A stretch of 64,000 nucleotides of DNA from IMG/VR virus record IMGVR_UViG_3300036795_000133, positions 50,085 to 114,084 of that record; one strand, given 5' to 3'. This stretch comes from a virus. Shown here piece by piece: positions 6,975-56,527 of this stretch (position 1 is the first letter of the stretch; the number at the start of each line of letters is the position of its first letter). The notes under the pieces were generated by a model. It was not told the origin of the DNA. It did not search any database and saw nothing but the letters and a program-made list of their open reading frames with translations. The position numbers were made by a program, and so were the translations under genes.

Positions 6975-7538
6975 CTACCGTGCCCTCGCGCGGCTGCGGG
7001 ACGGGGGGAGGTCGACGGCGTCCGGCGCGGCGTCGCGGAGGTTGTCGGCCATCTCCTCCGGGCTCGCAGACATGGCGCCTTCGGTCTCCGGGGCGCGGCC
7101 GTCGTCGAGCACCTGAACGCGGGAGCTTCCCTCCGGGTCCGGGCGCGGGGCGTCGGAACCGGGCGGCGGCACAGCAGGCCGGAACAGACGGCCGGAGACG
7201 TGCCGGGGCAGCAGTCTTGGCGCTTCCCCGCGGGTACCGTCAGGACCGGATAGCTTGCGCACCACGTCGACCTGCCGGCCGTCGCGGTTGCCGTGCCGGT
7301 TGAACTGGCGGGCCTCCTCGTCGGTGAGGTAGACGGTGTCGCCGGCCATCACGAGGTCGCTGTTCCGGTCTTTGTCGCCGCGGCGGGGGACGGACAGGTT
7401 GATGAGGGCCAGGTACGGCTCGCCGATGCGTGAGGCCGGGCCGGTCCAGGCGTTCTCCCGGGTCATCAGGTCGCGGAGAACCCTTTTCTCGTCCTCGGTG
7501 AGCGGCCTGGCCTGCTCGTCGGCTGCGGCTTGCGCCAT
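6975..7538 (-). CDS. Hypothetical protein downstream of the capsid gene
   Basis: 187 aa ORF with RBS GGGAG in the head operon. Confidence 0.6.
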   Translation of the reverse strand: MAQAAADEQARPLTEDEKRVLRDLMTRENAWTGPASRIGEPYLALINLSVPRRGDKDRNSDLVMAGDTVYLTDEEARQFNRHGNRDGRQVDVVRKLSGPDGTRGEAPRLLPRHVSGRLFRPAVPPPGSDAPRPDPEGSSRVQVLDDGRAPETEGAMSASPEEMADNLRDAAPDAVDLPPSRSRARAR

Positions 7539-46118: not shown

Positions 46119-46448
46119 CGGTCCGCGTCGCTCAGGAGCGGTCTTCGCCCCGGTCCCCGCTGGCGGTCCCGGTCCGGTCCTCAGGGCGGTCCGCCTCATC
46201 CTCGGCGGGGCGGTCCGGACCCAGGCGGCGGCGCAGCTTGCGGCCGTAGCCCTCGCTGACGCCCAGTTGGCGCGCGAGTTCCGCGCCGCTCATTGTCAGG
46301 TCCGTGGCCAGCAGCTTCAGTGCGCGCGCCTCAAGTTCAACGTCGTCCTCGGGAGCAGTCTCGGTGCTGGACCGGGGGGCGGTCCCGGGCCGCGCAGGAG
46401 CGGTCCTGGACCGCCGCGCGGGACCGCCCAGCTTCCGCTCTAGGACCG
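46119..46448. repeat. Cluster of CGGTCC/GGACCG repeats
   Basis: CGGTCC at 46119, 46151, 46164, 46170, 46175, 46187, 46211, with more copies in both orientations at 46369-46448. Confidence 0.55.
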
Positions 46449-47079
46449 CCGTCTTCGCGGCTGCCTTCTCCGCATCGGACCGGGCAATGGCGAGGGCCTC
46501 CGCAGCGTCCGCGAGAGCCTGGTCGCGCGCCTCAATCTCGGTGCCTGCCCGCGCCCGCAGGTCGCTCATCGCGGCCTGGTGCGCGGCGTTATCACGTTCC
46601 CGCGAGGACCGCTCCGCGTCCGCCGCGGCGAGCAGTTCCGCCTCCCTCCGCGCGACCGCGGCAACGGCCTGCGCGGCGGACGGCCCGTTCATGATGAAGT
46701 ACGCGGCAAGCAGTTCCGCCCCGTCGAGGAGCGCGCCGAACAGCAGCGAGAAGTGCGGCGGGGCGGCAGCCAGGACCACGTCCCCGGTGGCGCTCGCTGA
46801 CAGGAACATCGCGGCGCCCATGATCAGGTACGCCCCGGCCTTCGCGGGCCAGGGCGCGTCCCGCCACTCGGCGACGATCTCCAGGACGAGTACCGCGATC
46901 AGGAGCGGCGCGACCCCGTACAGCACGGCCAGTTCCCAGGGCATGTGGCCGAACTTGACCGAGTGGTAAACCTGGAACGCCATGGTGGTGCTGCCCATGA
47001 CGACGGTGACGATCCACGCTGAGGTCCGGGCACGGCGCAGCGGGGCGCCTGCGGCTTCATCTGATCCCATGTCGGACAT
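46132..47079 (-). CDS. Spd-like (DUF2637-type) membrane protein with coiled coil and C-terminal HTH
   Basis: Four TM segments, then a coiled coil, then DLTMSGAELARQLGVSEGYGRKLRR. Confidence 0.7.
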   Translation of the reverse strand: MSDMGSDEAAGAPLRRARTSAWIVTVVMGSTTMAFQVYHSVKFGHMPWELAVLYGVAPLLIAVLVLEIVAEWRDAPWPAKAGAYLIMGAAMFLSASATGDVVLAAAPPHFSLLFGALLDGAELLAAYFIMNGPSAAQAVAAVARREAELLAAADAERSSRERDNAAHQAAMSDLRARAGTEIEARDQALADAAEALAIARSDAEKAAAKTAVLERKLGGPARRSRTAPARPGTAPRSSTETAPEDDVELEARALKLLATDLTMSGAELARQLGVSEGYGRKLRRRLGPDRPAEDEADRPEDRTGTASGDRGEDRS

Positions 47080-47161
47080 CGTGACGCCTTCCTTGATCGT
47101 TCTCAGGGATTCGGGGCGACCGCCCGGCCCGGGGTAGCCGGGCGGTCGCGTTCTGGGGGGT

Positions 47162-47488
47162 TCAGGCGGCGGCAGGGTCGGAGAACTCCGCCTCGAGCGC
47201 GGCCCGCTGGTTGGCACCGAGGCCGCGCAGCCTGCGCGCCTGGTCGATGCCGAGGCGGGCCATGATCTGCCTCGCGCGGACCTTGCCGACACCGGGCATC
47301 GCCTCGAGGACCGCGGTGACCTTCATCTTTCCGATGGTGTCGTTCCCGCCCGCCTGGGCGAGGACCGCGGGCAGGGTTGTCGTGCCGTTCTTCAGGCAGG
47401 CCTTCGTGCCTGCGCGGGCAGAACGGGCCGCCTTCGCCTTCTCGAGGGAGGCGGCCCGCTGCTCGGGGGTCATGGGTGGTAGTGGCAT
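47162..47488 (-). CDS. mihF: Actinobacterial integration host factor (mIHF/sIHF)
   Basis: LPPMTPEQRAASLEKAKAAR..IGKMKVTAVLEAMPGVGKVRARQIMARLGI..RRLRGLGANQRAALEAEF. Confidence 0.92.
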   Translation of the reverse strand: MPLPPMTPEQRAASLEKAKAARSARAGTKACLKNGTTTLPAVLAQAGGNDTIGKMKVTAVLEAMPGVGKVRARQIMARLGIDQARRLRGLGANQRAALEAEFSDPAAA

Positions 47489-47536
47489 TGGTTCCTCCTG
47501 TTTGAACTGCGATTCATCACTGTGAGTAGTTGTTTT

Positions 47537-47670
47537 CTTGAGCGGGAAGGGGCGCTCAAGCTTGAGTGGGGTCTTGAGCGTGGCTTGAGCGGATCCTTTG
47601 AGTGCCGCTTAAGCTTCGTCGCCCCTACGCGCGGGCGGGCGCGCGCGGGCGCGCGCGAGGCCCGCTCAAG
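47537..47670. repeat. 8-bp repeat cluster (CTTGAGYG), candidate clt locus
   Basis: CTTGAGCG at 47537, 47573, 47584; CTTGAGTG 47561; TTTGAGTG 47597; inverted CGCTCAAG at 47553, 47663; CGCTTAAG 47606. Confidence 0.7.
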
Positions 47671-47681
47671 GATGGCACTCG

Positions 47682-49781
47682 TCACTGAGTGTCGCCTTCC
47701 CCCGGGGGAGGGGTCAGCATCCAGCGAGCGGCGGCCCGTTCGCCGACGACGTAGGCGGCGCCCTTGCCGCGCAGGTTCTCCAGCCAGGTCCGGGCCGTCC
47801 ACTTCTTCACGTCGAACCTCGTCGCGACCGCGCTGATCGTCGTGCCCCCCTCGAGCATCTCCAGCAGCGGGCCGAGAGCCTCGCCGGGCACCTGCGCCGC
47901 CTCGCCGACCTGCCGCCACCCCTCAGCCGTGAGCGCCGCCAGTGCCTCCGGGTCCGCCTGAGGGGGAGCGGGCCTCGCCCGGCCCTCCTCGATCGTCCTG
48001 CGCGCGGTGCCGAGCTTCGCGGCGAGGGCGTCGAGCCGCCCCCGTTCCCTGTCGTCCATTTCCGTCTCCCACCTCTGGAGGGGGTCTTCGCCCTCGAGCA
48101 CGGTTCCCTTCGCCGCGGGGACAGCCGTCTCCGTGCCGTCACCCGGTTCCTGCGCCGGCACGGCGGACGGGCCCGCGGTCATACCCGGCCCGCCGTCCGT
48201 CTCCGCCGGGTTCTCGCCTTGGCCGCGCGCCCACCTGGCGAACACCTCGTCCTTCAGCAGAGCCTCGTAAGCCTCGCCGAGGTACTCCGCGCAGGCACCG
48301 GAAATCTCCGGCTGGGCGAAGGCGCGCTCCTGGGCGAGCTGCTCCACGAAGGCACCGTGCCCGGCCGCGTTCGGGTGGAAGACCCATGTCCGGCCGACCT
48401 GCAGGCCGCCGCCGAGTCGCTCGACCTTCCACACGCCCGGCTTGCCCTCGCCGTAAGTGGACATGTCAGGGCCGGCGAGGCTGCCCGCGTGGCGGGCCTC
48501 GTTCGAGTTCTGAACCAGGCCGGTGCAGCGCACGTTGTCCTGGGACCGGGCCTTGGGGTCGGTGTACTCGCGGGTGTTCCGCTGGCCGAGGTGCACGTAG
48601 CCGACGCCGTGCGAGCGGCCCTTGGTGACGATCGTGGCGATGTCCTCCCGCAGGGGCCCCAGCGCGCTGTCGCTCTCGTCGTTGAAGATGATGATCGCCG
48701 GGTGCGCGGGCGAGGGGGCGTACTGGCCGCGCTTGAAGTTCTTCGTCCGCCACTCGATGACAGCGGCGATAACCTTCAGGACAGCCGCGGCGCGAGACTT
48801 CTGAGCCGGGCCGTAGGCGGTCAGCCAGCAGGCCGGACCCCAGCTCTCCACGTCCTCATGGCCCTTGACGGACAGGTTGAGGTGCACCGCCAGGGCGTCG
48901 TCGCAGGCGGTCACGTGCTCGAAGAGGTCGTCCTCCAGAACGCCTTTGCCTCCCCCGGAATTCGCGGTGACGCTGACGCGCCTGGCGCCGTTCTCGTCGT
49001 ACAGGGGGACGGTCAGCGGGTCGCCGGTCTCCGGGTCCTGGCCGATAACCGCCTCGTCGAGGATGCTACGGGCCTCCGGCAGCCGGATCTCCGGCTCCTC
49101 GCACACGAGCGGGTGCAGGAGCACGCCGGCCCACGGGTCGATGCGGCGGACGGAGATCCGGATCCGCCCGGCGAGGTGGTGGCCCATCACCCGGACACGG
49201 GACAGGGGAAGGTTCTCCGCCTCCGCGATTACCTCCTCGAGGGCACGGCCGACAAAATGGGACGCGCGCTTGCCGGTGCCCTTGGTGCTGACCGTGTAAA
49301 GCTCGCCGAGGCGCGTCTGCCGGAACTCGAGCAGGTGACTGCCGCCGAGGTGCCAGTTACGGGAGCGGCCGAGCCAGTCCGCGCGGGCGTCGCGCCACTC
49401 GCGGGCGGCGGTGACGGCGTCGTGCCTGTGCGCGGCCCTGGACGCGGCGAAGGCGAAGACAACCCAGGCGGCGGTCAGGGGAACAGCGGGCCACCAGGCA
49501 AGCGGGCCGAAGCGGTCAGCGGCGGTCAGCCAGGCGCCGCCGATCAGGACCCACCACGGCAGCGAGTCTGCGACGCCGTCCCGCCGTCCCGCGGTACCCC
49601 ACGCGAGGGCGACGGCCAGGGCGGTGGCGCCCCCGAGGGGGAGCACCGCGTGGACGCCGGCGAGCCGCATGACCTCAGCGGCCGTCCACGTCACCGCGGC
49701 GGCGGGCAGCACGGCGGATGCCAGGCGCTCCGCCGGGGCACGGCGCAGGTCCGGCACCTCCGTGCCCCAGTCGCCGTTCAC
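47682..49781 (-). CDS. TraB-like FtsK/SpoIIIE DNA translocase
   Basis: N-terminal TM segments; IGQDPETGDPL, Walker A-like ANSGGGKG, IIIFNDESD, IVTKGRSHGV..GQR; C-terminal winged HTH. Confidence 0.8.
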   Translation of the reverse strand: MNGDWGTEVPDLRRAPAERLASAVLPAAAVTWTAAEVMRLAGVHAVLPLGGATALAVALAWGTAGRRDGVADSLPWWVLIGGAWLTAADRFGPLAWWPAVPLTAAWVVFAFAASRAAHRHDAVTAAREWRDARADWLGRSRNWHLGGSHLLEFRQTRLGELYTVSTKGTGKRASHFVGRALEEVIAEAENLPLSRVRVMGHHLAGRIRISVRRIDPWAGVLLHPLVCEEPEIRLPEARSILDEAVIGQDPETGDPLTVPLYDENGARRVSVTANSGGGKGVLEDDLFEHVTACDDALAVHLNLSVKGHEDVESWGPACWLTAYGPAQKSRAAAVLKVIAAVIEWRTKNFKRGQYAPSPAHPAIIIFNDESDSALGPLREDIATIVTKGRSHGVGYVHLGQRNTREYTDPKARSQDNVRCTGLVQNSNEARHAGSLAGPDMSTYGEGKPGVWKVERLGGGLQVGRTWVFHPNAAGHGAFVEQLAQERAFAQPEISGACAEYLGEAYEALLKDEVFARWARGQGENPAETDGGPGMTAGPSAVPAQEPGDGTETAVPAAKGTVLEGEDPLQRWETEMDDRERGRLDALAAKLGTARRTIEEGRARPAPPQADPEALAALTAEGWRQVGEAAQVPGEALGPLLEMLEGGTTISAVATRFDVKKWTARTWLENLRGKGAAYVVGERAAARWMLTPPPGEGDTQ

Positions 49782-50701
49782 GCCGCCTGCCCGCCCTGCG
49801 GCGCGCCGCCGTCGCCGAACCAGAAGCGGTTGGCGGGCAGGGGGGCGCCGTCGGCCGCCTCGCGGAGGTCGTCGTGGATCAGGTGGTACCGCTTGCTGAC
49901 CTGCGCCGCATGGGAGGCCAGCTCGGCGATGTCGTCGGCGAACTCGTAGTGGGCGGCGACGTAGGCCGGGTGGAGGCCCGCGCCGCCCTCGCCCAGGTTC
50001 TCCGTGCGGGCCATGACCGCCTCAGCCCAGGTGAGGATCCCGGCGGCCTCCCCGTCCATGTGCTCGCACAGGTCGTCTTCGTTCTCCGGGTCGAACTCCG
50101 CCGCCTCGCCCGCCACGGCCGCCCACGTCCGGGGAACGATGACCCCAGCCGCCTCGAGAGCCACCGCCACGTCGGCGGGGGCGGGGGCGTCGCCGAGCGC
50201 CGGGTCAGCGTGGATGGACGGAACGCCGGGGACCGAGCGGCGCCACGGGGGGACGCCGGGGGTGGCGCGAACGGGCCGGGGGGCGGTGCCCGGTGCGGCG
50301 GGCGGCAGGGGCTCGCGGCGCATGAGGCCTGCGAGCTCGCGCACGCCTTCGCGGGCATTCCGCAGGGCGTCCCGCACCTGGTCGCATAGCAGCGAAAGGA
50401 TCAGGCGCGTCGCCCCGGCCTTCCCGAACTTAGGGTTCCTGGCAGCATGCCGCCACACAGACCAGCACCGCACGCCCACAACCGCCAGCGGTCCCGCCAG
50501 CAGAGACGCGTCAACCAGTACCGGCAGAACGCCGAGCACGGTCAGCGGGACCATCGCAGCGGAGATAAGGATCAGCAGGCCAGTCCAGCTGCGCGCGTCC
50601 CGCCACCCGCCCGTCCGGGCCATCTGGGCGATACCCAGGATGATGACGCCCGAGAAGAAGGCGAAGGCCCCCCACATGGCAAGGGTGAGAATCGTTCCCA
50701 T
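49778..50701 (-). CDS. Membrane protein coupled to the traB-like gene
   Basis: Three TM segments plus an acidic helical C-domain; GTGA overlap. Confidence 0.6.
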   Translation of the reverse strand: MGTILTLAMWGAFAFFSGVIILGIAQMARTGGWRDARSWTGLLILISAAMVPLTVLGVLPVLVDASLLAGPLAVVGVRCWSVWRHAARNPKFGKAGATRLILSLLCDQVRDALRNAREGVRELAGLMRREPLPPAAPGTAPRPVRATPGVPPWRRSVPGVPSIHADPALGDAPAPADVAVALEAAGVIVPRTWAAVAGEAAEFDPENEDDLCEHMDGEAAGILTWAEAVMARTENLGEGGAGLHPAYVAAHYEFADDIAELASHAAQVSKRYHLIHDDLREAADGAPLPANRFWFGDGGAPQGGQAA

Positions 50702-56022: not shown

Positions 56023-56133
56023 GAATTCGGTCCTTCCAGCGGTCTTGATTACTGCATTGCAGACAACATAAGCACAACTCATGTATATATGTCAAGGCAC
56101 GCGGAACCCCTGGTGAGGGACACGCCGGACCGG

Positions 56134-56158: not shown

Positions 56159-56185
56159 TCACTTGCCGCCCTCTAGGCTGTGTAC

Positions 56186-56527
56186 ATGGCAGGTGAGGAC
56201 TCCTGGAAGTACGAGCGCATAGCAGGCGACTTGCGCGGCGGCATCAGGAGCGGCAAGTACGCGCCGGGCTCGCGCCTGCCGTCCAAGAGCAAACTCGCAG
56301 CGCGGTACGACGTATCCGACGGCCCTGTAAACGAGGCGCTGAAGGTGTTGCGCGGCGAAGGGCTGATCGAGACCCGGCAGGGCAGCGGGATCTTCGTCTG
56401 CGACCCGCTGCCGGAAGTGGCGCTGTCGGAGTACGAGACTGTGATGGGGCGTATCGACGGCCTGGCCGAGGAGGTCAGGCAGCTACGCGGGGAAGTGGCA
56501 GCGCTGAGGCAGGCGAGGGGGGCGTGA
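56186..56527 (+). CDS. GntR-family repressor (KorSA/KorA-like)
   Basis: YERIAGDLRGGIRSG.Y.PG.RLPS...LAARYDVS..PVNEALKVLRGEGLIETRQGSGIFV; divergent from the transfer operon. Confidence 0.88.
   Translation: MAGEDSWKYERIAGDLRGGIRSGKYAPGSRLPSKSKLAARYDVSDGPVNEALKVLRGEGLIETRQGSGIFVCDPLPEVALSEYETVMGRIDGLAEEVRQLRGEVAALRQARGA

Follow-up and report, generated by a model that had tools for sequence, protein, structure and literature searches.

The cluster of short repeats at the 3' end of a membrane-anchored, FtsK/Tra-type translocase gene in a tailed phage genome is, judging from sequence comparison, probably the cognate cis-acting docking site of this double-stranded DNA pump. The translocase's own C-terminal tail represents the most economical candidate for the reader of the repeats, because the repeat word co-varies with the winged helix of this tail and because TraB and TraA of Streptomyces plasmids with their clt loci provide a precedent. 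New here are the translocase family, its words and the joint switch of wing and word.

Genome and gene neighbourhood

The repeats were found in virus record IMGVR_UViG_3300036795_000133, the full genome of which comprises 124,995 bp. Positions 50,085 to 114,084 of this record constitute the analysed stretch of 64,000 nt (hereafter the window), to which all coordinates refer unless a locus is named. Genes for a Mu-type portal protein and a capsid protein are present in the window. The carrier is a tailed phage and neither a plasmid nor an AICE; it differs from AICEs and conjugative plasmids, i.e. plasmids or integrative elements without virion genes, in that virion genes are present. Its host would be a high-GC soil actinomycete.

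The translocase gene (47682..49781, minus strand; 699-aa protein P0001) belongs to a leftward operon, which also holds genes for WhiB, small membrane proteins, an NlpC/P60 hydrolase, a 307-aa membrane protein, an actinobacterial-type integration host factor and a membrane/coiled-coil/HTH protein. This operon is faced by the divergent gene for a short GntR-type regulator (56180..56527, plus strand), an arrangement as in korA/tra of pIJ101. The gene for the 307-aa membrane protein (49778..50701, minus strand), the stop of which overlaps the translocase start, is located directly upstream of the translocase gene in 26 related loci. On the other side, a 315-aa protein with membrane, coiled-coil and C-terminal HTH parts (46132..47079, minus strand; likely start ATG at 47079) is the conserved downstream partner of the translocase, and across the related loci these three genes travel together. 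The gene for the integration host factor (mIHF/sIHF, 108 aa; 47162..47488, minus strand; NF041260 4e-37, PF22525) has a strong AGGAGG ribosome site at 47491-47500. It was detected in only four loci at slightly differing positions (the window, L007:6345-6665, L008:7254-7559 and L013:6981-7289) and is an optional passenger of the module. The overall context fits that of tra regions, because a divergent GntR regulator is present as in pIJ101, membrane proteins are encoded on both sides and a wall hydrolase is included.

Two further sequence features were observed in this neighbourhood. The region between the GntR gene and the leftward operon is AT-rich at 56040-56110 and contains several short palindromes (tgcattgca, catgtatatatg); it likely serves as promoter and operator region for divergent transcription. 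GGACCG/CGGTCC occurs about 17 times, in both orientations, at 46119-46560, within and just past the 3' part of the gene for the 315-aa protein, where it may reflect low complexity of the coding sequence or else form a second binding array.

Repeat cluster downstream of the translocase gene

Direct reading and pattern search confirmed the description given in the initial annotation, namely eight 8-mers of the type CTTGAG(C/T)G within 134 bp (47537..47670), five of them direct and three inverted. Copies 1 (47537..47544), 4 (47573..47580) and 5 (47584..47591) on the plus strand read exactly CTTGAGCG, as do the inverted copies 2 (47553..47560) and 8 (47663..47670) on the minus strand, the latter being nearest to the translocase stop. 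Copy 3 (CTTGAGTG; 47561..47568, plus strand) is an exact match to CTTGAGYG and forms with copy 2 the 16-bp near-palindrome CGCTCAAGCTTGAGTG. Copies 6 (TTTGAGTG; 47597..47604, plus strand) and 7 (CTTAAGCG, inverted; 47606..47613, minus strand) are one-mismatch variants. The direct copies are spaced 24, 12, 11 and 13 bp. Overall, the cluster takes up the intergenic space of 193 bp that separates the translocase stop codon (47682-47684) from the mIHF start: an 11-bp gap separates the stop from copy 8, the copies span 11-145 bp past the stop, and copy 1 sits 49 bp from the start of the mIHF gene.

Copies 7 and 8 are separated by a GC-rich spacer with a central element (47616..47662), the gene-sense strand of which reads ...GCGCGTAGGGGCGACGAA and which matches the "CCC-TATA-GG / TAGGGG" core dividing the two copy groups in nearly all relatives. 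The core itself (CCC-TATA-GG / GCGTAGGGG) is located at 47616-47632, and its position is kept in L001-L017. Inspected by eye, it fits neither a -10 box nor a hairpin consistently.

A comparison of 8-mer frequencies with the rest of the genome, proposed as a check together with the initial annotation, singled out this site. Five of the 14 exact CTTGAGCG copies in the 124,995-bp genome lie inside the cluster, and neither a second CTTGAGCG cluster nor a KOPS-like genome-wide enrichment was found in this genome. Nine copies are located outside the cluster, with about 4.7 expected from base composition. When one mismatch is allowed, the cluster contains 7 of the 164 matches in the genome (about 0.18 expected per 134 bp). 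Exact CTTGAGYG occurs 12 times in the window as compared to 4.3 ± 1.8 times in shuffled sequences, and half of these occurrences (6/12) fall within the 134 bp. When the most repeated 8-mer was determined for each 134 bp across the genome, the cluster shared the first rank with five exact copies. The cluster is a genuine feature without a counterpart in the genome, and its copy number far exceeds that expected by chance.

The sole other 8-mer cluster of comparable density in the genome is located about 46.6 kb before the window start (G000:C1:3396-3490). Here, GAAGGGTC(CGGG) occurs five times, once in inverted orientation, and a long stretch rich in AT comes immediately after; the site is a candidate for an origin or another protein-binding array.

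Translocase and its winged-helix tail

The ORF of P0001 has coding-type GC3. The protein yielded no match in Pfam, NCBIfam or PHROG, PF01580 (FtsK_SpoIIIE) is absent from the precomputed annotations of its family members, and tblastn searches with P0001 retrieved nothing from PLSDB plasmids and nothing from GenBank phages. Its approximately 110 homologues are nearly all unnamed metagenome proteins. Tra of pIJ101, which served as control, matches PF01580 (9e-10) and a C-terminal MarR_2/MarR-type HTH. Detection of PF01580 by sequence is the operational criterion for Tra proteins of AICEs (PMC3429521), and by such a Pfam match P0001 would not be recognized as a Tra/TraB-type translocase. With no match to Pfam FtsK_SpoIIIE, PLSDB plasmids or GenBank phages, the name "traB" chosen in the initial annotation is overstated.

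An AlphaFold2 model of P0001 built on 35 homologues (pLDDT 80.6) comprises four N-terminal helices, a large α/β domain and a C-terminal domain of three helices and a hairpin. Foldseek searches with this model identified TcpA of pCW3 (6o1x, E 6e-12) as best match for the motor; TcpA and the FtsK motor (E ~1e-11, TM 0.6-0.67 on target) were followed by EccC/EssC and HerA. The best PDB match of the family profile is FtsK (E 1e-3). An hhalign comparison of this profile with pIJ101 Tra extended over 274 columns including Walker A and Walker B (95.4% probability, E 2e-8), and the nearest named clusters in the ESM Atlas are actinobacterial proteins with FtsK_SpoIIIE plus MarR/IclR-HTH. P0001 thus combines an FtsK-type motor fold with remote homology to a bona fide Tra protein. 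A Kyte-Doolittle hydropathy above 1.4 at residues ~40-65 and 93-118 indicates an N-terminal membrane anchor; TraA of pWTY27 likewise has two TM segments (PMC3583192). Because of the fold matches, the profile alignment with pIJ101 Tra, the Atlas neighbours and the winged-helix tail, P0001 is regarded as a distant relative of the Tra/TraB translocases that escapes Pfam but is built from the same three parts.

Walker A of P0001 reads GGGKG (residues 276-280; window 48942-48956) and Walker B IIIFNDESD (residues 363-371), of which DESD is invariant in the family, as are Q400 and R401. The P-loop variant GKG is found in the nearest clade (14 of 35 aligned homologues, plus L007 and L009) and GKD in 3/35; GK[TS] is kept in more distant homologues, and the rest of the motor is strongly conserved. 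Since GKG lacks the Mg-binding Ser/Thr of Walker A, the motor may be altered in this clade, and the earlier statement that the transfer module looks intact is accordingly uncertain. One homologue, P0046 (1102 aa), exceeds P0001 in length by about 400 residues; the precomputed annotation of this homologue lists PF14528 (LAGLIDADG_3), suggesting that an intein or a homing endonuclease is inserted in this pump gene.

The C-terminal winged helix, which is the proposed reader of the 8-mers, is encoded at 47685..47876 (minus strand) and contains helix 3 KWTARTWLENLR and the wing GERAAARW. Residues ~636-692 were modelled with a pLDDT of 87-97 as three helices and a β hairpin, i.e. as a wHTH. Fold searches with the isolated domain yielded MarR/ArsR/SmtB repressors, generic wHTH proteins, as best matches. 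FtsK γ was not among the best structural matches of the isolated tail, by which a relationship is neither supported nor excluded. Helix 3 (W[TVI]ART[YW]LE.LR) is invariant across four word classes sharing nnnGnG[CT]G.

Conserved cluster and variable words

The comparison was based on 36 related loci, originating from one genome, five IMG/VR contigs and thirty metagenome contigs. As in the window, a cluster of short repeats is located directly past the translocase stop in about 20 relatives, nearly all of those with readable downstream DNA. The clusters have a common scaffold, consisting of two tandem copies, the central CCC-TATA-GG / TAGGGG core, 2-4 further copies, direct or inverted, and the RBS of the gene that follows. 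About eight different words occupy this scaffold across the family: [CT]TTGAGCG (as CTTGAGCG in the window and L007, as TTTGAGCG in L004/5, L015 and L017/18), AACGTGCG (L003, L008, L009, L010 and L022), AATG[CA]GTG (L002, L012 and L013), GGCCAATT (L023 and L035), TT(T)ACAAG (L032 and L036), GATTGTCCG (L033), ATGGGTCGAT (L001) and ATGAGCCGAT (L006).

Across these sequences the repeat word tracks the wHTH and not the motor. L003 and L002 share 89% identity in the motor, have only 64% in the wHTH and differ in their words; L004 and L015 (motor 54%, wHTH 84%) as well as L002 and L013 (motor 68%, wHTH 86%) each have the same word. In their DNA, L003 and L002 agree to about 90% on either side of a block reaching from about -190 to +110 around the stop, within which identity drops to 52-68%. 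This block covers the wHTH-coding end together with the repeats and includes no further gene. Furthermore, the wing switches between GE[KR]xxARW and GxGRxx[RQ]W together with a switch of the word between TTGAGCG and ACGTGCG on two backbones (window versus L008, L004 versus L010), while helices 1-3 are unchanged. In the former pair, helices 1-3 agree almost letter for letter, whereas the wing reads GERAAARW in the window and GKGRGAQW in L008, and the word CTTGAGCG and AACGTGCG, respectively. Since the wHTH-coding end and the repeats are physically adjacent, the co-variation could partly be due to hitch-hiking within one recombination block. Position and wHTH co-variation nevertheless speak for the part of the initial annotation according to which the 8-mers are the recognition word of the adjacent, TraB-like translocase.

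Two viral relatives (G5 and G3) were analysed over their whole length, one being a 70.7-kb record with terminal repeats, the other a 62-kb provirus. Both possess terminase, portal, protease, capsid and tape-measure genes. Because their structural genes are unrelated to those of the window phage, the module moves among different phages. In these two tailed phages, the word is essentially confined to the post-translocase site (4/4 and 4/6 exact copies). The terminase of G5 had no match in the Streptosporangium genome holding L001.

Comparison with known systems

In Streptomyces Tra/clt systems as well as in the phage module, a single membrane-anchored FtsK-like motor with C-terminal wHTH is accompanied by 7-9-bp direct and inverted repeats at or just past the tra 3' end (PMC3583192, PMC4447253). 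The clt of pWTY27 encompasses the last 16 bp of traA plus 159 bp and contains 7-bp direct and inverted repeats footprinted by TraA, and pJV1 possesses nine 9-bp repeats plus inverted repeats (PMC3583192, PMC4447253); according to the accounts given in the same two articles, TraB of pSVH1 uses its wHTH to read repeats of 8 bp. The divergent GntR regulator is likewise shared, as are membrane proteins on the flanks, and pIJ101 has the same GntR/tra/spd layout. Unlike these plasmid systems, the module described here is carried by a 125-kb tailed phage, uses new words, has GKG as Walker A of its clade and possesses a conserved scaffold with a central TATA/TAGGGG core. Its translocase family is moreover invisible to Pfam FtsK_SpoIIIE and without match in PLSDB or GenBank phages. 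Specificity apparently resides partly in the wing, whereas for TraB of pSVH1 helix α3 is reported in work cited in PMC3583192.

FtsK γ/KOPS and SpoIIIE/SRS resemble the present system in the FtsK-type motor fold and the 8-bp word, as well as in the C-terminal winged helix, the predicted reader here. KOPS and SRS, however, are chromosome-wide, strand-skewed and direction-steering, whereas the word here is confined to one cluster and is not over-represented and strand-skewed across the replicon; a further difference is the above-mentioned ranking of FtsK γ in the fold search with the tail. TcpA, the FtsK-like coupling protein of Clostridium perfringens pCW3 and best Foldseek match to the motor, differs in that it works in a multi-protein Tcp conjugation apparatus, no genes of which were found among the neighbours searched here. 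A phage genome also carrying a tra gene is that of pZL12, a plasmid-phage from Streptomyces (Zhong et al. 2010), the transfer of which needs this gene according to the citations in PMC3583192 and PMC4487206. P0001 had no tblastn match in the plasmid and phage collections, which need not include pZL12. FtsK-like genes have been noted but left unexplained in cultured Streptomyces phages (PMC13587820, PMC11536984).

Alternative functions of the cluster

The repeats might instead be transcription-control sites for the genes downstream of the translocase, bound by its wHTH or by another repressor and without any role in translocation; in this case, they would merely represent an ordinary regulatory array. 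Such a function would agree with the location of the cluster directly before the RBS of the following gene in every locus, with the palindromic copy pairs (three of the eight copies are inverted, forming near-palindromes), with the resemblance of the tail wHTH to MarR/ArsR repressors and with the conserved central element between the copy groups, as if these flanked a promoter. It is nonetheless considered unlikely. A promoter and terminator scan of 47100-48000 revealed neither a sigma-70-like promoter nor a terminator, and the central core, inspected by eye, lacks the conserved final T of actinobacterial -10 boxes. In addition, the predicted reader domain is attached to a motor in the membrane, the majority of the copies repeat directly with a spacing of about one helical turn, and the cluster stays at the translocase 3' end even though the downstream gene varies (mIHF, a 200-aa protein or an inserted ORF). 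Known clt sites likewise contain a mixture of direct and inverted repeats (PMC3583192). Pairing of the inverted copies in a structured RNA leader or terminator is the least credible reading and hardly to be expected. The intergenic transcript does fold more stably than shuffled sequences (z = -3.1), but the reading was rejected since most copies (5/8) are direct repeats that cannot pair mutually; within each locus it is moreover the word sequence that is conserved and not the pairing, no terminator-like site was found, and Rfam yielded only chance-level matches.

Binding of the repeats by another protein of the module, i.e. mIHF, the downstream membrane-HTH protein or the GntR regulator, is suggested by the short distance of 49 bp between cluster and mIHF gene and by the two further HTH proteins encoded in the operon region, yet appears improbable. 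mIHF, named as a possible binder already in the initial annotation, was rejected on the basis of gene presence and absence, as the cluster is nearly universal and most relatives keep it without an mIHF gene. The membrane-HTH protein was dismissed as well, since its HTH fails to track the word: it is nearly identical in L007, L003 and L002 with three different words and differs between L015 on the one hand and L004 and L017 on the other despite one common word. Copies of CTTGAGCG are absent from the GntR-operon intergenic region (pattern search), and the L002/L003 divergence block ends at wHTH and repeats without including any other gene. Replication-origin iterons or a partition centromere, which would likewise display short repeats in both orientations in one cluster per genome and could make use of the comparatively AT-rich stretch adjoining the cluster (47501-47536), are even a little harder to reconcile with the data. 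The neighbouring genes searched contain no match to a replication initiator, ParA or ParB. In phage G5 the primase-helicase gene is about 42 kb away, the more origin-like array of five GAAGGGTC copies beside a long AT-rich stretch is located elsewhere in the genome, and cluster and translocase gene always occur together in phage genomes that are otherwise unrelated.

Proposed function as docking site

If the cluster serves as docking site, the C-terminal winged helices of a presumably hexameric pump would bind the CTTGAGCG copies, with the invariant helix 3 reading the portion G-x-G-[CT]-G common to the words, and wing plus helix 2 reading the variable 5' half. The bound cluster would identify the phage genome as the DNA which the pump has to load, a role played by clt for TraB/TraA in Streptomyces plasmids. 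By analogy, mIHF may help to bend the docking site; the clt of pIJ101 lies in curved DNA according to work cited in PMC3583192. The least certain step concerns the purpose, which would likely be the transport of phage or prophage DNA independently of virions, be it through hyphal cross-walls, from one mycelium to another or into the compartments of spores. We know of no obvious need of a phage for conjugation, which counts against the docking-site reading.

Provided that the pump reads the repeats, a full set of plasmid-style address label and pump is present in the window phage and in at least two unrelated tailed phages, and viruses of mycelial bacteria would have a second, particle-free route of spread. 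The family represents a natural series of wHTH/word pairs. The two joint switches of wing and word with unchanged helices render the recognition code of FtsK/TraB-type tails directly testable by wing swaps, and the family could supply orthogonal pairs of pump and site for moving DNA in actinomycetes.

Mobility of the module

A broader and considerably more speculative notion is that tailed phages of filamentous actinomycetes move their genomes without virions between hyphal compartments, mycelia or spores by means of a plasmid-type single-protein pump and a private docking site. wHTH and array would then form an exchangeable cassette with at least eight words, diversified against cross-mobilisation by competitors and possibly driven by homing endonucleases.

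In L008, the gene for a 211-aa GIY-YIG endonuclease (L008:6364-6999, plus strand; PF01541, 1.6e-7) is located between the translocase stop (6085) and the AACGTGCG cluster (~7035-7140). The C-terminus of this protein contains a second wHTH with 38-49% identity to the translocase tails and with the wing GERRLARW of the other specificity class. The gene may encode a homing endonuclease with a captured DNA-binding domain of the pump, and thus a possible driver of cassette exchange.

In the Streptosporangium element, the module is followed by genes for a NUDIX protein (L048:9843-10565, Streptosporangium sp. G11), DpdA and DNA polymerase A, and in L035 the GntR regulator (1516-1818 region) is fused to a NUDIX domain. 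These NUDIX domains recall Pif of the AICE pSAM2, a NUDIX protein which inhibits transfer.
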